NCBI GenBank assembly: GCA_965242925.1
Contig: CBDEUM010000013.1
Span: 160,001 to 224,000, forward strand
DNA: 64,000 bases
Direction of reading: 5' to 3'
Source: Roseibacillus sp.
GTDB taxonomy: Bacteria > Verrucomicrobiota > Verrucomicrobiia > Verrucomicrobiales > Akkermansiaceae
The notes beneath the pieces were generated by a model. The model had not been told where the DNA came from and ran no database searches. It worked only from the letters and a program-made list of their open reading frames with translations. Position numbers and translations under genes: made by a program. Positions 34,677 to 46,484 of the stretch are shown one piece after another (position 1 is the first letter of the stretch; each line of letters starts with the position of its first letter).

Positions 34677-35450
34677 TCACCATCCCCCTCCAAGGGTATG
34701 GCCAGCATCCACGGTGAGAGATTCACCCGTCACCAGATCGCTGCCGGTAATCAGGCCGAGGATCACATCCGCCACATCCTCAGGACTACACGAAGTTTGA
34801 AGGGGCGCCTCGGCCTCCTTCGAGGCCACGAAGGCATCGTAGTTCTCACCCACTCCGCGACGGAGCCAGTCGCCCTTGATAAACCCTGGCGCCACCGCAT
34901 TGACGCGCACCCCTTTTGGCCCCAGGACGCGAGCCAGGGACTTGGTCATGGTGATCAGGGCCCCCTTGGAAGCGCAATAGGGAATACAGCTGCCCCGCCC
35001 GGTGAACGCGGCCACGCTGGCGACCGAAACGATTTCCGCACTCCCCGCCGCTTCGAGGTGAGGCCGCGCGGCCCGCACACATTGGAAGGCCGCCTTCACA
35101 TTGACATCCATCAGGCGCGACCATACCTCGTCATTCACCGCATCGAAATCATCGGCCGGGATGAACACGGTCGTGCCAGCATTATTGATGAGGATATCCA
35201 GTCGCCCAAATTCCTCCACGGCAGCCTCCACCATGCCCCGGCAAACCGCGTCATCGGAGACATCACCCTGGAAGAGGGTTGCCTGCACGCCACATGCCTC
35301 AGCCTGCGCACACACCCCGGCAGCCGCCTCACTGGACTGCGCGTAATTGATCAGCACCGAACACCCCTGCCGGGCCAGCGAGAGCGCAGTGGCGGCCCCT
35401 ACTCCACGACTCGCCCCGGTCACAATCGCCGCTTTCCCCTCGATCAGCAT
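34677..35450 (-). CDS. Short-chain dehydrogenase/reductase (FabG-like)
   Basis: Start ATG 35450; TGASRGVG, INNAG, YCASK, VNAVAPG. Confidence 0.92.
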   Translation of the reverse strand: MLIEGKAAIVTGASRGVGAATALSLARQGCSVLINYAQSSEAAAGVCAQAEACGVQATLFQGDVSDDAVCRGMVEAAVEEFGRLDILINNAGTTVFIPADDFDAVNDEVWSRLMDVNVKAAFQCVRAARPHLEAAGSAEIVSVASVAAFTGRGSCIPYCASKGALITMTKSLARVLGPKGVRVNAVAPGFIKGDWLRRGVGENYDAFVASKEAEAPLQTSCSPEDVADVILGLITGSDLVTGESLTVDAGHTLGGGW

Positions 35451-35627
35451 GGCGTTAACGATAGCGGCCCGCACCCGCGGATCAACCCATCCCCGGAAAG
35501 AAAACGGCAACGAAAAGGGCATTACGGCGAACTTCCTCACGAAGAAACGGGAACGGAGCCCGGGTTTACCCGGGAGGGGCCAAAACAAGGAAGTGCATCC
35601 GGCGGCCCGATGATGTGAACTCCCGCA

Positions 35628-37082
35628 GTGCCCATCGCATTCGACAACAGCTACGCGCGCCTCCCCGAGCACTTCTTCTCGCGGGTCGATCCCACCCCGG
35701 TGGCCTCCCCGTCCCTCCTTCGCTTCAACCATGCTCTGGCGGAAGAGATGGGAGTCACCGCCAGGGACTTCCCCCCCGACGTACTTGCCGGCAACGCTCT
35801 CCCGGAGGGGTCCGAACCGATTGCGCTTGCCTACGCCGGACACCAGTTCGGTGGATGGGTTCCCCAACTCGGGGACGGCCGGGCGGTCCTTCTCGGCGAG
35901 GTTGTGGGACCTGACGGAAGACGACGGGACATCCAGCTGAAGGGATCGGGTCCGACCATCTTCTCCCGCAACGGAGACGGCCGGGCCGCCCTTGGTCCCG
36001 CCATCCGGGAATACGTGGTGAGCGAAGCGATGGCCGCACTCGGTATTCCCACCACCAGGGCCCTCGCGGTTGTCACCACCGGAGAAAAGGTCCTCCGCGA
36101 ACGCCCGCTGCCCGGCGCGGTCTTCACGCGGGTGGCCAGCAGCCACATCCGGGTGGGCACTTTCCAGTATCACCATGCGCGTGAAGATCCTGATGCCCTT
36201 CGCGCCCTGACCGACCACGTCATCACCCGCCACTACCCCGAGGCCGCAGAAAAGGAAGTTCCCGAACTTGCCCTCCTGGGTCTGCTGGCCACCCGGCAGG
36301 CCGAGCTGGTCGCGCAGTGGATGCTGGTCGGATTCATCCACGGGGTGATGAATACCGATAACTTCTCCATTGCGGGCGAAACCATCGACTACGGCCCCTG
36401 CGCCTTCGTGGACAACTTCCACCCCGGAAAGGTCTTCAGCTCCATCGATCGGCACGGGCGCTACTCCTGGGGGAACCAACCGCAGATCGCGCACTGGAAC
36501 CTCCTCCAGCTCGCACAGTGCCTCATCCCCCTCCGTCCCGGCAGCGCGGAGGACGCCAGGGAAGAGTTCGAAGCTGTCCTCAACGAATTCCCCGGCACGT
36601 TCGCTCGTGCCTACGAGCAAGGGTTCGCCCGTAAGCTCGGGCTCCTCGACCCGCGCCCCGGAGATCTCGACCTCGCGAAGGATCTCCTCACTCTCCTCGC
36701 CGAACAGGAAGTCGACTTCACTCTCTTCTTCCGCCGCCTCACCACTCAGGTGGAATCGCACGATGAGGACCAGTCCGCAGTGCATGATCTTTTCGGGTGC
36801 GCCAAGGGATTCGACCAGTGGTCCGCAAAGTGGCAGGCGCGGACCTCGCAGCAGGATTTTCGCGACCAGGCACAGACCATGCGTGCAGCCAACCCCATCT
36901 TCATTCCCCGCAACCACCGCCTCGAGGAAGCCATCACGGCTGCCGAACAACAGAACTTCGCCCCCTTCGAACAACTCCTCGAAGTCCTCTCCCGGCCCTT
37001 CGACGAACAGCCGGAGAATGCCGGGTATGAGAACCCACCCCAGCCCGGGGAAGTCGTCCACTCGACCTTCTGCGGGACCTGA
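35628..37082 (+). CDS. selO: Protein adenylyltransferase SelO/YdiU
   Basis: YAGHQFG, LGDGRA, QLKGSG, GFIHGVMNTDN, IDYGP, NPIFIPRNH, TFCGT*. Confidence 0.95.
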   Translation: MPIAFDNSYARLPEHFFSRVDPTPVASPSLLRFNHALAEEMGVTARDFPPDVLAGNALPEGSEPIALAYAGHQFGGWVPQLGDGRAVLLGEVVGPDGRRRDIQLKGSGPTIFSRNGDGRAALGPAIREYVVSEAMAALGIPTTRALAVVTTGEKVLRERPLPGAVFTRVASSHIRVGTFQYHHAREDPDALRALTDHVITRHYPEAAEKEVPELALLGLLATRQAELVAQWMLVGFIHGVMNTDNFSIAGETIDYGPCAFVDNFHPGKVFSSIDRHGRYSWGNQPQIAHWNLLQLAQCLIPLRPGSAEDAREEFEAVLNEFPGTFARAYEQGFARKLGLLDPRPGDLDLAKDLLTLLAEQEVDFTLFFRRLTTQVESHDEDQSAVHDLFGCAKGFDQWSAKWQARTSQQDFRDQAQTMRAANPIFIPRNHRLEEAITAAEQQNFAPFEQLLEVLSRPFDEQPENAGYENPPQPGEVVHSTFCGT

Positions 37083-39259
37083 TCACTTCTTTCGGAAGGC
37101 CTCCTTCTCCTTCCCCGGCCTGCTCTCCCCTTTTCCCAGCCCGGCCCGCTTCTTGAGCTCCTTGATCTGGTCCCGCAGGTGGGCTGCCCGCTCAAATTCC
37201 AGCCTGGTAGCCGCCTCCTGCATTTCCTGTTCCAGTTCACTCAGGACATTCACCGCATCGTAGAGTGAGGCCTCCTCGGCCACGAGGGAGCGATTGAGCT
37301 TCTCGGCCCGGCTCCTGTCATCCTGGTGCTGGTGCAGGCTCTTCTGCACCGCCCGCACCACGCTCTGCGGCGTGATGTTGTGCCGTTCGTTGTAGTCCTT
37401 CTGCCTGCCGCGGCGATACTCGGTCACATCGATGAGACGCTGGATGGAATCGGTCACCTGGTCACAGAACAGGACGCACTCCCCATTGATATGACGGGCC
37501 GCCCTTCCCGCGGTCTGGATCAGGCTGGTCTCGTTGCGCAGGAAAGCCCTCCTTGTCGGCATCGAGGATGCACACCAGGGAGACCTCGGGCAGGTCCAGT
37601 CCCTCCCGCAGCAGGTTGATCCCCACCAGGATGTCGAACTCCGCCGCCCGGAGCTGCCGCAGGATCTCCACCCGCTCCACCGCATCGATGTCGGCGTGAA
37701 TGTAGCGCACCTTCAGCCCGGCCCCCTGGAGATACTCGGAAAGATCCTCGGCCGTGCGCTTGGTCAGGGTGGTCACCAGCACGCGCTCACCCTTTTCAGT
37801 GCGCTGCTGGCACAGTTCGATGGTCGCGTCGATCTGGCCCAGCGAGGGGCTTGAGGGTGAGGACCGGATCGAGCAGGCCGGTGGGACGGATGATCTGCTC
37901 CACGATGAGGAGGTTTCCCTTCCGGGTCACATCAAATGCCTCCACCGGGTCCTCGGTGGGACTGGGCACGATGCGAAGCTGCCGCAGGCTGATGGGATCG
38001 ATCCCACGCTCCTTGTTCCCATGCACGGGAATACAGCCCTTGTTGTCCGGACGCGAATTGACCACCTCGAAGGGCCCCGGGGTGGCACTGACGTAGACAC
38101 GCTGGTTGGTAAGTTCCATGAACTCGTTGAACCGCAGCGGGCGGTTGTCGAGGGCACTGGGCAGGCGGAAGCCATGCTCAACGAGGGATTTCTTGCGGCT
38201 CATGTCGCCTTCATACATCCCGCGGATCTGCGGCACGCTGACGTGGCTCTCGTCCATGAGCACCAGGAAGTCGTCGGGAAAGAAATCGAGCAGGGTGTAG
38301 GGCCGCTCCCCCGGGGCCCGTCCCGTGATGTGCCGGGAGTAGTTCTCGATCCCCTGGCAGAATCCCATCTCCTGCATCATCTCGAGGTCATACTCCGTGC
38401 GCATCTTGAGGCGCTGGGCTTCGATGAGCTTGCCTTCCTTCTCAAAGAACTCGATCCGCTCCTTCATCTCGGCGCGGATCGCAATCATGGCGCGCTGCAT
38501 CTTTTCGGCCGAGCTGACAAACTGCTTGGCCGGGAAGAAGGTGTGCTTGTCGACCCGCTCGATCACCGCCCCGGTGAGAACATCAATGGTGGAAATCCGG
38601 TCCACTTCGTCCCCGAAGAACTCAACCCGGATGGCGGTGTCCTCGAGATAGGCGGGATGCACCTCCACCACGTCACCCCGCACCCGGAACTTTCCACGGC
38701 CGAAGGCGATGTCGTTGCGCTCAAAGAGAATGCCCACCAGCTGTCCCAGGAGCTCGTCACGCGCCAGTTCCTGCCCCTGCCAGACGGGGACCATCATCCC
38801 CTCGTAGTCGTCGGGCGATCCAAGGCCGTAGATGCAGCTTACCGAGGCCACCACCACGACATCCTGGCGGGTCAGGAGCGAACCCATCGTGCTCAATCGA
38901 AGGCGCTCGATCTCGTCGTTGATGGAGGAGTCCTTCTCGATGTAGGTGTCGCTGCGCGGGATGTAGGCTTCCGGCTGGTAATAATCGAAATAGCTCACGA
39001 AATACTCGACCGCATTGTGCGGAAAGAAGTTTTTGAACTCGGAGTAGAGCTGCGCGGCAAGGGTCTTGTTGTGGCTCATCACGAGGGTGGGCCTGCCCAT
39101 CCGCTCGATGACATTGGCCATGCTGAATGTTTTACCGGACCCCGTGACCCCCAGCAGGGTCTGGTGCGCATTGCCGGCCTCCAGCGACTTGACCAGTTTC
39201 TCAAAGGCCTGTTCCTGATCACCCTTGGCGCTGTAGTCGCTGACCAGTTGAAAGGACAC
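37083..39259 (-). CDS. uvrB: Excinuclease ABC subunit B (about 724 aa), interrupted by two +1 homopolymer indels (~37839 and ~37544)
   Basis: [56 protein letters not shown]-terminal FERAAHLRD spread over three frames. Confidence 0.95.
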
Positions 39260-39332
39260 GGGGCATTACTAGACCACCGTCACGGCATTGCAAACTCCGG
39301 GACCCCTGCCCTTGAATCCCCTGCATCTGTAC

Positions 39333-39383
39333 AAGCAAAGAGAGGCGCCACGGTTTTAGGATCTAAAACCCGGCGCCCCCCTT
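39333..39383 (-). terminator. Terminator-like hairpin closing the sigma-54 transcript
   Basis: Minus strand GGGGGGCGCCG-GGUUUUAG-AUC-CUAAAACC-GU-GGCGCC-UCUCUUUGCUU. Confidence 0.7.
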
Positions 39384-39737
39384 ACCTTGCCTTGTCAGTC
39401 GAATGAATGTCCGCTACCACCCGGACATATTCTGCTATGATTACCGGACAGGTAGTCAGCCTCTCCGGTAATGGCTGTTCGCCGACTGGACCGAGACCGT
39501 CCGCTCCCAACCCCTTGATGGCACACCCGGATTAGTGAACTGCGCCAGAGGTCAGGTCTGCGATCGGGCTCATCAAATGGCCCCGCCGTCGAAAATTCTT
39601 CAACTCCGCACCGGAAACCCGCTCCTCCTTCGTTCCTCCATCCCCGTTTGACGCCAAGGGTTTGCCCTGGCGTGGCGCAACGGTTCCGGGGATTCGTCAG
39701 GGCGGAGAGTTCCAGCATGTAATCTTTATGGAGTGAG
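39335..39737 (-). ncRNA. Candidate ~400-nt sigma-54-dependent structured non-coding RNA
   Basis: Bounded by a sigma-54 promoter and a terminator; stems at 39640-39693, 39440-39472 and 39407-39428; closing helices 39396-39401/39483-39488 and about 39602-39611/39701-39712; overlapping ORF is not protein-like. Confidence 0.6.
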
Positions 39738-39747
39738 AGGTTTTGGT

Positions 39748-39764
39748 TGCACAACCCGTGCCAA
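39748..39764 (-). promoter_or_regulatory. Sigma-54 (-24/-12) promoter
   Basis: Minus strand TTGGCACGGGTTGTGCA versus consensus YTGGCACG-N4-TTGCW: one mismatch, GG-N10-GC spacing intact. Confidence 0.85.
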
Positions 39765-39782
39765 CTTGGCCATCATGACTCT

Positions 39783-39795
39783 TAACTATTTGATA
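39783..39795 (-). promoter_or_regulatory. IHF-binding site
   Basis: Minus strand TATCAAATAGTTA is an exact WATCAA-N4-TTR match, within an AT-rich patch about 46-58 nt upstream of the predicted +1. Confidence 0.7.
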
Positions 39796-39853
39796 TCGTG
39801 CGTGTTGGAAATTTATTACGGAAACGTTAATATAATTTTCCACCCCTGGAATC

Positions 39854-39901
39854 CGGTAGTTCTTTCCGGGTTCAGCCTTTGCCAACTTGTAAGTTTTACC
39901 G
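39854..39901. promoter_or_regulatory. Paired putative enhancer (UAS) palindromes for a sigma-54 activator
   Basis: CGGTAGTTCTTTCCG (39854-39868) and TTGTAAGTTTTACCG (39887-39901), 33 bp apart, at about -117 to -164. Confidence 0.5.
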
Positions 39902-39989
39902 GGCCAACCGGCTCCCGCTGGGGAGCGGAGAACTCTGAGACCGGGCCCCTTGCCTCCGGGATTTCCGGGACCGGCGACAATAACCGGCC

Positions 39990-42059
39990 CTAGGAAACCA
40001 ATCCCATTTCGTGCAGGGCATACTCCACATCCGCGGGACGGAGGGGTTTGGGAAGATAGCCGTTCATCCCAGCCTTGCGACAGGTCTCACGGTCCGATTC
40101 AAGCACGTTGGCAGTCATCGCTATGATGGGAAGGTTGGCCGTGTTTCCGCCTCCCTGACCCGCCCGCACGAGACAGGCTGCCTCCACCCCGTCCACCTCC
40201 GGCATGTTCATGTCCATGAAGATGGCCTCGTAGTTCTGTCCCTGTTGCAGTTTCTCGAGCGCCTCGCGCCCATTGTCGGCGGTGTGTACCTGAAAGCCGA
40301 ACTTTGCCAGGATGAGAGTGGCGAGACGCGCATTGATCGGATTGTCCTCCGCCACCAGGATATAGCGGTCCCCGGCGGGCACGCATTCCTCCCCGGCATC
40401 GGGACTCAGGATCGGGCCGAGCGCCCGGAACATCTCCCGTTGCCGCACAGGCTTGAACAGGACCTGCCGATAACCTGCTGCCAGCGCGTGCTCCTTTTCC
40501 CCGCTCAACCGCGCGGAAGTGACGAGAATCATGGGCGGAAGCAGGGAGCCCGCGACCTCCGCCGCAAGACGGGCGAACTCCAGGCCGTCCATGGTGGGCA
40601 TCATCATGTCGCAGAAGATCACATCGTAGTGAACGCTGCCGAGTTGCCGCAGTCCGTGCTGGCCGCTCCCCACCACGTCGCTCTCCAGCCCCCACGAGAG
40701 CAGTCGCTTCTGCAGGAAGCGCTGGTTGATCTCGTTGTCATCGATGACGAGGGCCCGCTTGCCATGAAACTGCCCCTTGTCCTCGATCATCGCGAAGGGA
40801 CTGGATTCCCCCACTACAAGCGGAATGGTGAAACGAAACTCCGCTCCCTCTCCCATGTGCGAGGTGGCGCAAATTGTTCCACCCATGCGTTCCACCAGGC
40901 GTCTGCAGATGGCCAGGCCCAGCCCCGTGCCACCGAACTTCCTCGTGGTCGAGGCGTCCTCCTGCTGAAACGGCTCGAAGAGACTCTCCGCCTTGGACGG
41001 ATCAAATCCCACCCCGGTGTCGCGCACCGCAAGCTCAAGGAAGGGCCCCGGGACCACTCGGCCGTTCACGCTCACCACCCCCTTGGAGGTGAACTTGAGA
41101 GCGTTCGAGACGAGGTTGAGAAGAATCTGTTTCACCCGCGCCACATCCCCGACCACCACCTCAGGCGTTCCATCCATCATATCATAAGTGAGCTCGACAC
41201 CCTTCCCGGAGGCCTTGGCGGCATGGAGACCAAGCACTTCCTCGATGCAGTCGGTGAGTTCGAAGTCAACCTGTTCCAGGTCGAGGCACCCACTCTCGAT
41301 GCGCGAGAAATCGAGGAGGTCGTTGATGATGTTGAGCAGAAGGTCCCCACTCCGGTGGATGAGACCGAGATTCTCCCTCTGCTCTTCCGTGAGCTTGGAG
41401 TCGAGAAGCAACTCGGTGTAGCCGATGATCCCGTTGAGAGGGGTCCGGATCTCGTGACTCATCATGGCCAGGAACAGAGACTTGGCCCGCTCAGCCCGCT
41501 CCGCCTCCTCCTTGGCCAGGCTGATCTCCCTGACGGCCTTCACCCGTTCGGTGATGTCACGCACGATGCCGTGCACCAGGGTTCGACCCTCGTACTTCAC
41601 CCGGCCCCACACCACTTCCACCGGCAGGAGCGATCCATCCCCCCGCCGCAGCTGGGCCTCACTGCGGCTGTGTCCCGTGCGCTGAACATCGTTGAGAGCG
41701 GCCCCGGTCACCTGCCAGTTCATGAGCTGGGAGATGTACATCCCCCGCAGCTGCTCCCGCGAAAATCCGAACATGCGCACCGCGGTGTCGTTCACCTCCA
41801 TGAAGGCTCCGAAGCCGTCGAGCAGGATGATCCCGTCCACCGAGGCGTTGAAGAAGACCTTGAACTTTTCGTCGTCGCGACCCTGCAACTGCCAGCCCTG
41901 CTCCTGAGCACGGCGGCCAAGCTGCTCCTTCACGCGCGCGAGCTCCCCGGCAAATCCCTCAAGCTGCTGCTGGGCCTCGTGGCGAGCAGCCAGCTCGACT
42001 TCATAAAGCCGTCGCCATTCGGAGGCCTCGTCCAGGAGCTCGCGTTGGGCCTTCCTCAC
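39990..42059 (-). CDS. Cytoplasmic hybrid sensor histidine kinase (coiled coil-PAS-HisKA-HATPase-REC-REC)
   Basis: FLAMMSHEIRTPLNG, QILLNLVSNALKFT, DTGVG, GGTGLGL, two receivers (CDMMMP, MDMNMP); no TM segment. Confidence 0.93.
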   Translation of the reverse strand: MRKAQRELLDEASEWRRLYEVELAARHEAQQQLEGFAGELARVKEQLGRRAQEQGWQLQGRDDEKFKVFFNASVDGIILLDGFGAFMEVNDTAVRMFGFSREQLRGMYISQLMNWQVTGAALNDVQRTGHSRSEAQLRRGDGSLLPVEVVWGRVKYEGRTLVHGIVRDITERVKAVREISLAKEEAERAERAKSLFLAMMSHEIRTPLNGIIGYTELLLDSKLTEEQRENLGLIHRSGDLLLNIINDLLDFSRIESGCLDLEQVDFELTDCIEEVLGLHAAKASGKGVELTYDMMDGTPEVVVGDVARVKQILLNLVSNALKFTSKGVVSVNGRVVPGPFLELAVRDTGVGFDPSKAESLFEPFQQEDASTTRKFGGTGLGLAICRRLVERMGGTICATSHMGEGAEFRFTIPLVVGESSPFAMIEDKGQFHGKRALVIDDNEINQRFLQKRLLSWGLESDVVGSGQHGLRQLGSVHYDVIFCDMMMPTMDGLEFARLAAEVAGSLLPPMILVTSARLSGEKEHALAAGYRQVLFKPVRQREMFRALGPILSPDAGEECVPAGDRYILVAEDNPINARLATLILAKFGFQVHTADNGREALEKLQQGQNYEAIFMDMNMPEVDGVEAACLVRAGQGGGNTANLPIIAMTANVLESDRETCRKAGMNGYLPKPLRPADVEYALHEMGLVS

Positions 42060-43411
42060 ATTAATCCGTGCCGCTTCAGCTTGTTGTAGACCGACTTCTC
42101 CGTGATCTCCAGACGACGGGCCGTCTCCGCCTTGTTCCCGTTGCAGAGCTTCAGGGTCTGGATCAACGACTCCCGTTCCAGGTCGGACAGGGCGATGCCC
42201 CCGATCCCGGCCGGAACCCGCCCCGAGGGCTCGCTTCCGCGCACCGCACCCGGCAGATCCTTCAATTCAACAACCCCTCCCTCGCAGAAGGCCGCCGAAC
42301 GCTCGAGGACGTTCTCGAGCTGGCGCACGTTCCCGGGCCAGTCATAGGCCTGCATGGCCGCGACTGCTTCCCTGGAAAGTTTCACGTTCCGGCGCCCACC
42401 CCGTTGCGCGATGCGCTTGAGCATGACGTCACTCAGTCCCCGCAGCTCCTCCAGGCGTTCGCGCAGGGGAGGAACTTCTATAGGAATGACACTCAGCCGG
42501 TAAAAGAGATCCTCCCGGAACTGCCCTTCCTTCATGCGCTGCTCAAGATCGAGGTTGGTGGCCGCGATGACGCGGACGTCAGCCTCCAGGTTCTCCTCCC
42601 CGCCCAGTCGCTGGAATTGACGTTCCTGCAGGACATTGAGGAGCTTGGGCTGCAGATCGATGGGCAAGTCTCCGATTTCATCGAGGAAGAGCGTGCCTCC
42701 CCTTGCCATCTCGATCTTGCCTCGCCGGCGGCGCACCGCACCCGTGAAAGCACCCTTTTCATGTCCAAAGAGTTCGCTTTCCAGGAGCTCACGCGGAAGG
42801 GTGGGACAGCTCACCGTCACGAAGGGCTGATCCCCCCGGCCGCTGTTGGCATGAATGTGGCGGGCTAGCATGCCCTTGCCCACTCCGCTCTCCCCGGTCA
42901 ACAGGATGGTCGAGTCAAGGGAGGCCACCTTGGTAGCCTGGGAAACCACTTCCTGCATCGACTCCGAGTCGGCCACGATTTCCACTGCGGGCCCCCTCCC
43001 TCCGATCGCTTCCCGCAGCTGTTCGTTCTCCCGCTCCGCAGCGCGCAGTCGCCGGGCATTGCGGAGAACCGCCAGTAACTCCTCCGGGTCGAAGGGCTTG
43101 GTCAGGTAGTCGAGGGCCCCAAGTTTCATCGCCCTCACCGCATCGGACGCTTCGTCCACCGAGGTGAGCACTACCGCCGGCAGGCCCGGATGCTCCTGCG
43201 CCAGGCGCTCCAGCGCGCCAAAGCCGTCGAGGACCGGCATTTGGAGATCCAGCAGCACCACATCCGTGTCGTCGTTGACGAGATCGAGGGCCTCCGCGCC
43301 ATTTTCGGCGGACTGCACCGTGAAACCGCCCCGCTCGGCCTGCATCGTCAGCAGGTTCCGCACAGTTTCGTCGTCGTCAGCGACGACCAGATGGGGTGTC
43401 TCTTCAGACAT
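42056..43411 (-). CDS. Sigma-54-dependent response regulator (REC-AAA+-Fis HTH; NtrC/AtoC/LuxO type)
   Basis: LLDLQMP receiver, [49 protein letters not shown]. Confidence 0.95.
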
Positions 43412-43573
43412 TTAGGATATCTTAACTATTCCTGCGGGAGATGCCCACCACAATTTCCCCGGCCGTAATGGCCTGATCCCCCGGAAATCTGCCCGTTCTC
43501 CGCGAAAGGGCTCCCCTTGATCCACCCGCCTCTTACTCTTTCCCCGCGGCCCCCTGGTCCGTATGGTGTCCGC

Positions 43574-43912
43574 GTGGCCCTTCTCGATCCTGTCCAACTC
43601 GACGCCATGGCCTCCGGCAGGCCCGAACTCCTCCTGCCGATCGTGAGCGACTTTGAAATGCACGGGCGCGGACAGTTGTCGAACCTGCACGCTGCCCTCA
43701 CCCAGGGCCGCCTTGAGGACGGCAAGAGCATCCTCCATCAACTCAAGGGCGCCTCCGGCACCATGGGCATGATCCAATTTCAGGAACTCTGCCGGGAATG
43801 CGAGGAAGAGCTGACCACCGGCCAGATCCCTCCCCGCCTTGCGGAACTCGGCCCCCTCCTCCTCGAATCGGTGGCCGGAGCCAGCGCCCACCTCCGGGGA
43901 GAAGTCTCTTAG
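43574..43912 (+). CDS. Stand-alone Hpt phosphotransfer protein
   Basis: LHQLKGASGTMG Hpt motif, LCRECEE; divergent from the regulator; start placed at GTG 43574. Confidence 0.88.
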   Translation: MALLDPVQLDAMASGRPELLLPIVSDFEMHGRGQLSNLHAALTQGRLEDGKSILHQLKGASGTMGMIQFQELCRECEEELTTGQIPPRLAELGPLLLESVAGASAHLRGEVS

Positions 43913-43925
43913 GCTACACAGCCCG

Positions 43926-46484
43926 TCAGTCCCCGCCCCTGGCCGCGGCGACCGAGTTCACGGTGGCATAGACGGTCTGACGGATCGGACTCCCATCGGC
44001 CGCCACCACGTCCACCGCAATCTCCAGTGGCAAGTTGACTCGCACCTTCACATCGCCCGACTCCTTATCCCTGGTCGTGCGGTGGATGAGATCCTCCTTC
44101 GCAATTCCAGGAATCGTGATCAGCACCCTCCGCTTCCCTTCCAGCTTCACTGCCGCAGCTGGGCTGGCAATCCCCTGCGATGCCTTCTTCTCGTTACTCG
44201 CCCGCCCCACCCCGATGTTCTCCCGAATCACCGACTTCGCATCGAGATCACAGGCAAAGGTCAACCGAATCCCCTCCCCGGTGACCTGTGCGCCGCAAAC
44301 CGCGTGGCAGGAATCACCGGTATATCGCAACCGGTAGATCGCCCCATCCCGGGGGGCCCTCGTATCCCATCCCTTGTGACAGGCTATGTACACCTGGCCA
44401 TCAACCGGGTTCACCCGGGGACGCATGGCCCCTGAGACCAGGTCATAGGGAAACCGGATCGCAAAGCCGTTGGGATAGGGCGCGACATCCTCGATCAGGC
44501 AATAGAACACCGAGCACAAGCTGTAGGAGGTGTGTATCACCGCCCCCCCCAACGGCCCCCAGCCACGCTCCCTGCTCTGGCACTGGCCCCCGCTGGAACT
44601 GTCCACCCCCGGGGGAAGAACCACCAGCATCGGGGTAGTGCGCTCCTGCTCGAAGCCGTAGCGGACACCTTCCCTCGCAAGCATGAAGCCATTGAATACT
44701 GCTTTCCCGCTCGGATTATCCGCCACCGTGATCCCCTGCGCGATCGAGCCCAGGCCATTGGGATTACGAAGATCCCTCCCGATAAAGGACGATCTCTTCC
44801 CGTCCGGACTCACTTTCACAACCGCCCCCGTAAGCGGCGATTTATAACCACTCTGGGAATAATAGAAATTTCCCTCCGGGTCACATTGCAGGTCGTAGAC
44901 AAAAGCGTGGTAACTCGCCCCGATCTCATGGGAGTCCTCGTGGAAACTCTCGTAGTAGTCCGCCTCCCCGTCCCCGTTGAGATCGTGCAGGCGCGTGATG
45001 CGATCCCGTCCCCGCACGTGGACCAGTTCATCCACCACCTTCAACCCCAGCGGCTCATACAGACCCGCGGCAAAGCGTGACCATCGCAACGCTCCACCCG
45101 GCCCCTTCTCCGCGGTCACGATCCAGACATCCCCGCTCAAGGTGGAAACCGCCATGCGGCCATCCTGGAAAAAATCCATCGCGGAGATGCGCATCCAGCT
45201 CCCGTAGGGATTGGCAAAGGGCACCGTCAACAAATCAGCGGCATAACCCTCGAGCGGCTTGCCGGGAGCCACCGCGGTCTGTAATTCGATCGGCCAGCGA
45301 CGGGGTCCCCCGTCGAGCAAGCTCTGGAGAGGAATGGTTTCACCCCCCGGTTGCTCAACGTCCTCCGGGGAGAGACGAACTGCCAGCTCCGTTGCCTTCG
45401 GCGAAGGCGCAATGGCTATCCAGCGCGCGCCATCCGCCCCGGAGACAACCTTCGCCGCACCCTGCAGGGTCTCCAGTCCCACCTCGAGGCGCTTGTCCCG
45501 GGCCGCCAGGCAGTAAACCGTTCTAGTCCCCGGCCCCACTTCCAGCACTCGCGTGATCACCTTCCCGCCATTCGACACGCTCGGCAACTCGCGCACCTCA
45601 CGGCCTCCCACCTCGTAGCCGAGCACCACCCGCCGTCCATGCAGGTGCACTCCCTTGAAACGGAGATGCCCCCACCTGTTGTCGTCGGTCACCTCCGGCG
45701 AATCAACCGTCCAGCCGATACGATCCACATCGTGATAAAGCACCTCCCCACCCGGCATGACAGGCCGCCCGCCCTTGTAGCTCGTGTGGTGGGTCTCACT
45801 GGTGTCCGCGAGGCTGCCCCTCCAGATCCCGCTCACCGAGAGACGGGCCGCATCATAACAGATGACCTGGTCCCCGGGCAGGTCGACAATCAGGGCCTTC
45901 TCGGTCGTGTTCTCGATCTGCGCAGCGTTCCTGTCCTGGATGGAGCCGTAGGCCACGGCGTGCTGCAGGAACGGTCCATAACGCATCCGGGTTCCCCCGC
46001 TTCCATCGATCATCCCCGGGGCAACCTGCACCTGGTTTTCGAGCTGGCCCTGCGCGACCCCGTCCGCAGCGGCACGCTCATTCAAGCCTTCGTAGTAGGC
46101 CTCGTCGGGCTCAAAATACTGCCCGGGATTCCTCTCCCGGATAATCTCCTCCCGCAGGTGATGCACGACCTCGTAACGCTCCTTCGGGCTCAGCACCGCG
46201 TCCCATCGGAACATGAGACCGTTTCCGTAACTGATCGTTTTCCAGAGGGAGTAGGGATCACTTCCAAACTTCAGCTCATCCACCGCAAAACGCCGCGCCA
46301 GCGGGTTGACCGCAAGGTCCCCCTCCTTCCCATGGCAGGACGCACAATGCAGGGCATAGAGAGCCCGACCCGCCTTCACCTCACCATCCCCTAACGCCCT
46401 GATGGTCTCCTCGTGATCAATTCCTTCCGCGGCCTTCGACCAGCCGGACATCAAAATCGTGAGACAAACGAGGCGGACAATCAT
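43926..46484 (-). CDS. Exported c-type cytochrome plus DUF6797-like and beta-propeller domain protein
   Basis: Signal peptide, GRALYALHCASCHG, TISYGNGLM, propeller motifs SGDVW, FAAGLYEPLG, LHDLNGDGEADYYE, LRNPNG. Confidence 0.8.
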   Translation of the reverse strand: MIVRLVCLTILMSGWSKAAEGIDHEETIRALGDGEVKAGRALYALHCASCHGKEGDLAVNPLARRFAVDELKFGSDPYSLWKTISYGNGLMFRWDAVLSPKERYEVVHHLREEIIRERNPGQYFEPDEAYYEGLNERAAADGVAQGQLENQVQVAPGMIDGSGGTRMRYGPFLQHAVAYGSIQDRNAAQIENTTEKALIVDLPGDQVICYDAARLSVSGIWRGSLADTSETHHTSYKGGRPVMPGGEVLYHDVDRIGWTVDSPEVTDDNRWGHLRFKGVHLHGRRVVLGYEVGGREVRELPSVSNGGKVITRVLEVGPGTRTVYCLAARDKRLEVGLETLQGAAKVVSGADGARWIAIAPSPKATELAVRLSPEDVEQPGGETIPLQSLLDGGPRRWPIELQTAVAPGKPLEGYAADLLTVPFANPYGSWMRISAMDFFQDGRMAVSTLSGDVWIVTAEKGPGGALRWSRFAAGLYEPLGLKVVDELVHVRGRDRITRLHDLNGDGEADYYESFHEDSHEIGASYHAFVYDLQCDPEGNFYYSQSGYKSPLTGAVVKVSPDGKRSSFIGRDLRNPNGLGSIAQGITVADNPSGKAVFNGFMLAREGVRYGFEQERTTPMLVVLPPGVDSSSGGQCQSRERGWGPLGGAVIHTSYSLCSVFYCLIEDVAPYPNGFAIRFPYDLVSGAMRPRVNPVDGQVYIACHKGWDTRAPRDGAIYRLRYTGDSCHAVCGAQVTGEGIRLTFACDLDAKSVIRENIGVGRASNEKKASQGIASPAAAVKLEGKRRVLITIPGIAKEDLIHRTTRDKESGDVKVRVNLPLEIAVDVVAADGSPIRQTVYATVNSVAAARGGD

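Follow-up and report, generated by a model that had tools for sequence, protein, structure and literature searches.

The locus examined here (positions 39333 to 43912) lies in a 64,000-nt stretch of DNA from Roseibacillus sp., hereafter called the window, in a genome of 4.58 Mb that is 89.9% complete. It contains the overlapping genes of a hybrid histidine kinase and a sigma-54 enhancer-binding response regulator (the activator), a divergent gene for a stand-alone histidine phosphotransfer (Hpt) protein, and, behind the kinase gene, a conserved sigma-54 promoter followed by a predicted RNA with a covarying 3' domain and a long open reading frame (ORF) (Table 1). The original prediction had described a phosphorelay with an RNA output in a bacterium of the Planctomycetes-Verrucomicrobia-Chlamydiae group. 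The hybrid kinase, the activator with its GAFTGA motif, the overlap of their genes, and the divergent Hpt were all found as described by Pfam searches and in the translations. The matching contigs belonged to metagenome-assembled genomes (MAGs) of Roseibacillus, Akkermansiaceae, and Verrucomicrobiales, in agreement with the proposed phylum. The three genes are indeed adjoined by a conserved -24/-12 box, and the product of this promoter has a structure supported by covariation.

Table 1. Features of the locus and the neighboring gene (positions are those of the window).
Feature	Positions	Strand	Evidence and remarks
Stand-alone Hpt phosphotransfer protein	43517-43912	+	Pfam PF01627, E 2.1e-12; HQLKGASG motif; divergent from activator
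Sigma-54 enhancer-binding response regulator, REC-Sigma54_activat-HTH_8	42056-43411	-	Pfam; GAFTGA and Walker A GESGVGKG
Soluble hybrid histidine kinase, PAS-HisKA-HATPase_c-REC-REC	39990-42059	-	Pfam; H-box MSHEIRTPLNG
Upstream palindrome-like site 1, CGGTAAAACTTACAAG, genus consensus TGTAAAAnTTTACA; candidate activator site	39886-39901	-	16/16 aligned loci
Upstream palindrome-like site 2, CCGGAAAGAACTACCGG, consensus GGTAAAnnCTACC; candidate activator site	39853-39869	-	Alignment of 16 loci
AT-rich block with invariant TATATTAAC, between enhancer sites and promoter	39826-39840	-	16/16 loci
Site like that of integration host factor (IHF), TATCAAATAGTTA	39783-39795	-	Sequence reading; fits the IHF consensus WATCAA-N4-TTR; partly conserved in 16-locus alignment
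Sigma-54 -24/-12 promoter TGGCACGGGTTGTGCA, TGGCAC-N5-GTGCA	39748-39763	-	Pattern scan and conservation
Predicted sigma-54-dependent transcript, about 400 nt	39333-39737	-	Minimum free energy -172.9 kcal/mol, z -4.08
ORF, 107 codons, invariant ATG	39395-39718	-	Open across genus; without coding statistics
Hairpin A, 10-bp stem, conserved loop cUGACUa	39443-39469	-	6/10 pairs with compensatory changes; kept in G007
Hairpin B, 7-bp stem, invariant loop GGGUGGUAGC	39407-39428	-	2 compensatory pairs; 99.3% of cells paired
Invariant, mostly unpaired 21-nt stretch UUCGACUGACAAGGCAAGGUA, between hairpin B and terminator	39383-39403	-	21/21 sequences
Terminator-like hairpin, 17 pairs, weak U-rich tail UCUCUUUGCUUGU	39339-39382	-	97.7% of cells paired; 2 compensatory upper-stem pairs
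uvrB, next gene on the same strand, frameshift-split; neighbor not demonstrably belonging to the module	37083-39259	-	Pfam on two ORFs

The activator and kinase genes overlapped by 4 bases. When the 689-residue translation of the kinase was inspected by eye, a coiled-coil-like N-terminus preceded the PAS domain and no hydrophobic segment was seen; therefore, the sensor appears to be cytoplasmic. In NCBIfam searches, the activator scored 328 bits against the LuxO model (cutoff, 800) and 346 bits against the GlrR model, which was among its best matches (cutoff, 763), while the kinase scored 350 bits against the LuxQ model (cutoff, 1200). Both proteins fell below every equivalog cutoff and were therefore regarded as a generic NtrC/AtoC-type activator and a TorS/BarA-type kinase, not as Lux orthologues. 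For the Hpt, the ATG at 43607 is a more likely translation start than the listed one. The genome also encodes RpoN, whose DNA-binding domain was detected with 194 bits.

Some further observations concern these genes. The interval before the activator ATG (43412 to 43470) contained, immediately in front of this ATG, a conserved ATTGTGGTGGG...AATAGTTAAGATATCCTAA arrangement in 11 of 11 loci. A TAAGAT hexamer was located 8 nt upstream of this ATG, and a nearly leaderless mRNA is possible. The sequence ATAGTTAAGA from the same region recurred in the IHF-like site of the RNA promoter. In one genome of the genus (G019), the same kinase orthologue, 81% identical to the query, was present on two contigs (C16 and C115), which is probably an assembly duplicate or a mixture of strains.

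The sigma-54 box was located 227 nt beyond the kinase stop codon, placing the predicted transcript start near 39737. With a single mismatch to TGGCAC-N5-TTGCW, it was one of only two such matches (at most one mismatch) in the window, and the strict box occurred 19 times in the genome. Conservation of the promoter was counted over 54 loci, consisting of 16 loci of the genus together with 15 genome and 23 metagenome loci that were retrieved from two public collections by an invariant 20-mer of the RNA. TGGCAC-N5-nTGC was present 279 to 398 nt upstream of the RNA core motif in 53 of them. The sole locus lacking the box (L063) was discarded as a chance match of the 20-mer inside an unrelated coding region. 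The GG and GC elements were invariant and the five spacer bases varied freely, which is the footprint expected for a sigma-54 promoter. A simple scan of 39000 to 44200 found neither a sigma-70 promoter nor a terminator.

The region upstream of the box was compared in an alignment of the spacer between kinase and uvrB from the 16 loci of the genus. Both palindrome-like sites were of the GTAAA..TTAC type and were conserved at all 16 loci. With two candidate sites upstream and an AT-rich block between them and the promoter (16/16 loci), the layout resembles that of enhancer-dependent sigma-54 promoters, which have activator sites about 80 to 150 bp away and a bend site in between. Thus, the same-strand arrangement of -24/-12 box, IHF-like site, and paired palindromes that had been proposed was present and is conserved in the genus. 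Elsewhere in the genome, the only perfect TGTAAA-N-TTTACA palindrome (C29:233057) had no sigma-54 box within 250 bp.

Conservation in the spacer was highest not at the promoter but in a 130-nt block at about 39329 to 39458, with 83 to 87% identity across the genus. From 21 distinct sequences, the 135-nt 3' domain was resolved into three hairpins (A, B, and the terminator-like hairpin). Over the 40 pairs of this structure, 97.4% of cells were paired, compared with 41 to 52% when the 3' partners were slid by 1 to 3 columns. Compensatory changes on both sides were found in 10 of the 40 pairs (2 to 7 in the slid controls), and the covariation score of 0.254 exceeded the 0.06 to 0.09 of the slid controls and was reached by none of 500 shuffles. 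The hairpin that had been proposed to bound the region downstream is therefore real and covaries. Between species, the 3' domain diverged by 2 to 19%, the 5' part by 28 to 49%, and the 4-fold sites of the flanking genes by 19 to 63%, which indicates strong nucleotide-level selection on the 3' domain and weak selection on the rest. The invariant, mostly unpaired stretch, which includes the stop codon of the ORF and a further 12 nt beyond it, is a candidate seed or protein-binding site.

The RNA matched no known family. Searches of Rfam with the RNA gave no family up to an E value of 10, and nothing in the window reached a gathering score. A scan of 39200 to 40100 returned two matches at E values of 0.84 and 0.93, neither of them to the RNA itself: one falls outside it, and the other is on the opposite strand. 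ARAGORN found nothing. A closing helix of a middle domain was considered; its z scores were -1.3 to -5.1 in 16 sequences of clades A and C and only +0.4 to -1.7 in 5 sequences of clade B, and it is not claimed because of the weak values in clade B.

The distribution of the RNA and of the Hpt was surveyed in 20 genomes of the genus. A DNA search detected the 3' domain in one copy per genome in 16 of the 20, or in 17 when the divergent copy in genome G007 was included. A covariance model recovered it in 12 of 15 sampled genomes of the genus; among 135 genomes representing 19 other genera of the family, it had no hit. At five loci with orthologous kinase-activator pairs in other genera, the RNA was not found even with the filters off (best E value, 0.16). 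All 16 loci of the genus that carry the canonical RNA kept the order kinase, spacer, uvrB. In G007, TGGCACGCGAACTGC was located 165 nt after a kinase orthologue (65% identity), and behind it came the divergent RNA, which retained the UGACUA-loop hairpin and a GC-rich terminator and gave a full-length match to the covariance model (38.9 bits; E value, 2e-8; filters off). The gene after this RNA was truncated and unrelated, not uvrB.

The Hpt was present in exactly the 17 genomes that carry the RNA, beside the kinase where contigs allowed, and in none of the other 3, which also lacked a kinase orthologue and the RNA. In G002 and G015, kinase matches were at the level of paralogues, and in G017, the match was partial. 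This co-occurrence, together with the gene order in G007 without uvrB, indicates that the parts travel together and links the RNA to the relay, not to uvrB. As a separate observation, the gene after the RNA in G007 (L082, G007:C37, 2950 to 4287) appears to be just the C-terminal half of a gene for an oxidoreductase-like protein, which suggests a rearrangement breakpoint right behind the RNA.

Orthologous kinase-activator pairs were found in five other genera, with kinases 41 to 50% and activators 57 to 70% identical. At two loci of one such genus (L103 and L104), a sigma-54 box accompanied by GTAAA..TAC-type sites was located after the pair, and the products of the genes behind the box had signal-peptide-like starts (MFQSPF... 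and MFHPTP...). At a locus of another genus (L106), an inverted sigma-54 box, TTGGCACTAGTTGTGCAACCAA, was found within about 0 to 420 nt past the kinase and pointed back at it. The palindromes there, CGTAAAATTTACAG and CCGTAAACTGTACAGG, were of the same motif type as site 1, and the covered stretch of about 270 nt held a 63-codon ORF and two TTTGTGTATAGGGC repeats. No sigma-54 box was found after the kinase in the remaining genera with orthologous pairs. Since the genes behind the box differ between genera, the cargo of the promoter appears to be lineage-specific.

For expression, assembled contigs from RNA libraries were used. Fifteen runs contained part of the stretch, and coverage was placed for 4 runs from four studies. 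In 3 of these 4, contigs were confined to the RNA (39406 to 39725 at a depth of 12.7, 39410 to 39624 at 20.3, and 39376 to 39590 at 8.1), and the flanking contigs had depths of 0 to 3.7. One RNA contig ended 12 nt downstream of the predicted start. These contigs weakly support expression. Regions of the stretch to which no RNA contig mapped were given no weight as evidence.

Taken together, we consider it reasonably probable that the locus is a self-contained relay module with a sigma-54-dependent RNA as its output, and that this output acts mainly at the RNA level. In this model, the cytoplasmic PAS hybrid kinase would pass phosphate through its own receiver domain or domains to the Hpt and from there to the receiver of the NtrC-type activator, a route suggested by the domain logic. 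The activator would then bind the two palindrome-like sites about 90 to 140 bp upstream, helped by the AT-rich, IHF-like bend, and would open the sigma-54 promoter. That this activator drives this promoter is suggested by their adjacency, by their co-occurrence, and by the enhancer-like sites. The product would be a genus-specific RNA of about 400 nt ending at the terminator-like hairpin, whose 5' two-thirds would carry the frame of 104 to 115 codons. Its functional core would be the 135-nt 3' domain with the UGACUA loop, the GGGUGGUAGC loop, the invariant unpaired ACAAGGCAAGGUA, and the terminator. The exact ends of the transcript and the translation of the frame are presumed in this model.

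The 3' domain would act in trans, by pairing with mRNAs or binding a protein, with the invariant unpaired stretch and the two invariant loops as the favored contact elements; a target of this kind is presumed. Neither the Hfq family nor the CsrA family was found in the 89.9%-complete genome, and the proposed action would require neither protein. A sequestering RNA of the CsrB/RsmZ type was considered and rejected, as CsrA was not found and the loops are UGACUA and GGGUGGUAGC, not ANGGA.

Taken alone, the box pattern was at chance level, with 14 matches of at most two mismatches in the window compared with 15.35 expected; the promoter is taken as real because it is conserved across loci. Several results weigh against the interpretation as a relay module with an RNA output. 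In a crude scan of the genome, no other sigma-54 box had similar palindromes within 250 bp, and the link between activator and promoter therefore rests on adjacency and co-occurrence. The terminator-like hairpin was not flagged by the simple scan, because its U tract is weak. The 5' 265 nt were weakly structured (z scores of 0.01 to -3.84 in 12 sequences), and no consensus structure was found in the 5' or middle part by RNAalifold. Genome-wide, the only complement of at least 13 nt to the invariant 31-nt stretch was the antisense strand of the RNA itself; three 12-mer complements elsewhere were at chance level. Predicted pairing with the leaders of the activator or Hpt was within about 1 standard deviation of shuffles at 9 of 10 loci. 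In the fourth RNA-library run, made with oligo-dT, low-depth contigs spanned the whole region from uvrB to the RNA and included the promoter. In general, the contigs are without strand, ends, or level, and carry-over of DNA is possible.

The remaining points of this kind concern the ORF, which had been overlooked when the region was said to contain no convincing protein and which is kept open genus-wide. Across loci, it was 104 to 115 codons long, with an invariant ATG 28 to 31 nt past the -12 GC. The frame from this ATG was open in 31 of 32 unique transcript variants, which argues for translation and makes a protein output possible. The exception, L054, carried an 85-nt deletion that shifts the frame and left the 3' domain intact. 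Even the poorly conserved 59 to 93 upstream codons were open in 13 of 13 lineages, although these lineages are only 30 to 55% identical in nucleotide sequence there. Their composition predicts 1.7 to 3.5 stops per lineage, and the probability of finding no stop is 0.03 to 0.18. In the same lineages, the other two forward frames contained stops in 25 of 26 cells. Over the full ORF, frame 0 was free of stops in 16 of 16 sequences, while the other five frames had at least one stop in 78 of 80 cells. Insertions and deletions in the spacer and ORF were multiples of three. The frame thus appears to be under selection for remaining open, and translation would be the simplest reason.

Coding statistics gave a different picture. 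The dN/dS ratio was 0.49 to 1.82 in 18 pairs, the same range as in shifted frames. The GC content at codon positions 1, 2, and 3 was 0.62, 0.62, and 0.55, compared with about 0.65, 0.40, and 0.80 in six neighboring genes, whose third-position values ranged from 0.74 to 0.88. No homologue was found in Pfam, in NCBIfam, or among 5.8 billion protein clusters, sibling MAGs included. An AlphaFold prediction from a 20-sequence alignment contained no secondary structure (pLDDT, 52.9; pTM, 0.10). What looks like a C-terminal motif, GNHSRxCPGGSGH, results from translating hairpin B with its loop, and the seemingly synonymous changes in it are compensatory changes in the stem. The ORF is thus probably translated with hardly any constraint on its amino acid sequence, and selection at the sequence level in this region appears to act on the RNA. 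An open frame that evolves almost neutrally is the most unusual feature of the locus.

The alternative that fares best takes the ORF at face value. In that case, the output would be a basic and disordered small protein (about 107 residues), with the sigma-54-dependent transcript serving simply as its mRNA and the conserved hairpins contributing to mRNA stability and termination. The invariant ATG, the indels in multiples of three, and the openness of the frame, which extends to the divergent copy in G007, would all follow, and in a neighboring genus the orthologous pair is likewise followed by a sigma-54 promoter before the gene of a signal-peptide protein. However, a conserved protein would hardly be expected to show substitution ratios like those of shifted frames, to lack codon-position periodicity, to have no homologue and no predicted fold, and apparently never to have been deposited by any gene caller. 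Its best-conserved residues coincide with the loops of RNA hairpins, and invariance continues for at least 12 nt beyond the stop codon. Moreover, G007 lost the C-terminal motif and kept hairpin A and the terminator, and L054 retained the 3' domain after its frame was broken. We therefore regard a protein as the sole output as possible but rather unlikely.

Within the interpretation of an RNA-level output, the transcript is likely a dual-function or translation-coupled RNA. One specific form of this would be a translation-coupled riboregulator, the only output of the relay, in which the ORF, though free in its sequence, would have to be translated for ribosomes to unfold hairpins A and B and thereby expose or protect the invariant 3' stretch. 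This form is put forward tentatively and is doubtful. If true, regulatory activity would depend on the translation status of the RNA, a mode of small RNA (sRNA) control in a lineage in which Hfq and CsrA were not found.

A cis-acting role ahead of uvrB was also weighed. Here, translation of a leader ORF to just before the hairpin would control termination or read-through into uvrB. This gene is next on the same strand at all 16 loci with the canonical RNA, as the original prediction had noted for the query and Pfam verified. In many variants the ORF stops 12 nt ahead of the hairpin, an open ORF with an unconstrained sequence fits a leader peptide, and the contigs of the oligo-dT run span uvrB to the RNA. 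However, contigs stopped short of uvrB in 3 of the 4 runs, and the spacer to uvrB differs by more than 150 nt between clades. In 5 of 16 sequences (L003, L005, L007, L009, and L017), the stop lies 9 nt further upstream, beyond the reach of a ribosome to the hairpin. Nor are the invariant hairpin loops explained by such a leader, and in G007 the unit of promoter and RNA stays with the kinase, with no uvrB behind it. The link to uvrB looks incidental, and a leader function is very improbable.

The neighboring genes deserve brief mention. In the window, uvrB consists of two ORFs of 487 and 200 codons, with a one-base frame change near 37690 to 37800 that may be a MAG assembly error or mark a pseudogene. 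A position of uvrB next to qrr1-luxO in Vibrio, raised in the original prediction, was not confirmed; the term uvrB does not occur in the main text of PMC10162802. Further on, only the last 250 or so residues of a 794-codon ORF (34677 to 37061, minus strand) matched a short-chain dehydrogenase; the first 540 had no Pfam match, and the listed start may therefore be too far upstream.

True quorum sensing of the LuxQ/LuxU/LuxO/Qrr kind, with an autoinducer-controlled, Hfq-dependent sRNA that represses a master regulator, would share the domain logic and the RNA gene beside the activator operon but is the least probable of the readings. The LuxO and LuxQ models scored far under their cutoffs, neither a membrane part nor a periplasmic sensor part was seen in the kinase, Rfam gave no Qrr match, a search of the 89.9%-complete genome did not find Hfq, and the RNA is four times the length of Qrr and unrelated in sequence. 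The original comparison with LuxU, LuxO, and Qrr thus stands for the logic of the domains and the adjacent RNA, and not for Lux orthology, a membrane receptor, or a Qrr match.

LuxO and sigma-54 are reported to be required for Qrr transcription. In the Vibrio circuit, as here, a hybrid kinase, an Hpt, and a REC-AAA+-HTH regulator lead to a sigma-54 promoter and an RNA beside the activator operon. Qrr RNAs are about 100 nt long and noncoding. In contrast to that circuit, the proteins here are not orthologous, the kinase is soluble, Hfq was not found, and the RNA, encoded in a single copy and not by a multicopy family, is about 400 nt long and includes a maintained ORF.

In Pseudomonas, CbrA-CbrB activates CrcZ, a sigma-54-dependent RNA of about 400 nt that is encoded on the strand of the two-component genes, directly after them, and that titrates Hfq/Crc with repeated A-rich motifs. 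The RNA described here resembles CrcZ in length, sigma-54 dependence as predicted, and position right behind two-component genes, but it is G-rich, showed no A-rich repeats on inspection, and comes with an Hpt step and an ORF in a genome in which Hfq was not found. In enterobacteria, the NtrC-type activator of GlrK-GlrR acts on the sigma-54 promoter of an sRNA gene, glmY, beside its own operon, and GlmY acts on RapZ by protein mimicry. The likeness lies in an NtrC-type activator next to a sigma-54 RNA gene, whereas no relation in sequence or structure was found (Rfam negative) and GlrK-GlrR has no Hpt.

Dual-function sRNAs such as SgrS/SgrT and RNAIII/hld combine an ORF and a structured riboregulator on one transcript, with ORFs of 26 to 43 codons that encode constrained peptides. 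The same combination would apply here; unlike in those RNAs, the ORF has 104 to 115 codons, its amino acid sequence evolves nearly neutrally, and the frame runs through the structured domain. Judged from these comparisons, the locus appears to be analogous to LuxO-Qrr, CbrB-CrcZ, and GlrR-GlmY and homologous to none of them.

To our knowledge, the regulatory RNAs of Verrucomicrobiota are essentially uncharted. Our literature searches found no relevant work on sigma-54-dependent small RNAs in Verrucomicrobia and none on sRNAs in Roseibacillus. The locus, for which ocean metatranscriptomes contain traces of expression, makes a compact and testable circuit of kinase, Hpt, activator, promoter, and RNA available in bacteria that are abundant in the sea. 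It would repeat a design known from Vibrio, Pseudomonas, and enterobacteria, in which a sigma-54 RNA is encoded next to the activator. This repetition suggests that the layout evolved convergently, here in a genome in which neither of the usual RNA chaperones, Hfq and CsrA, was found. If the ORF is translated, it would provide a clean case in which selection acts on translation itself and not on its product.

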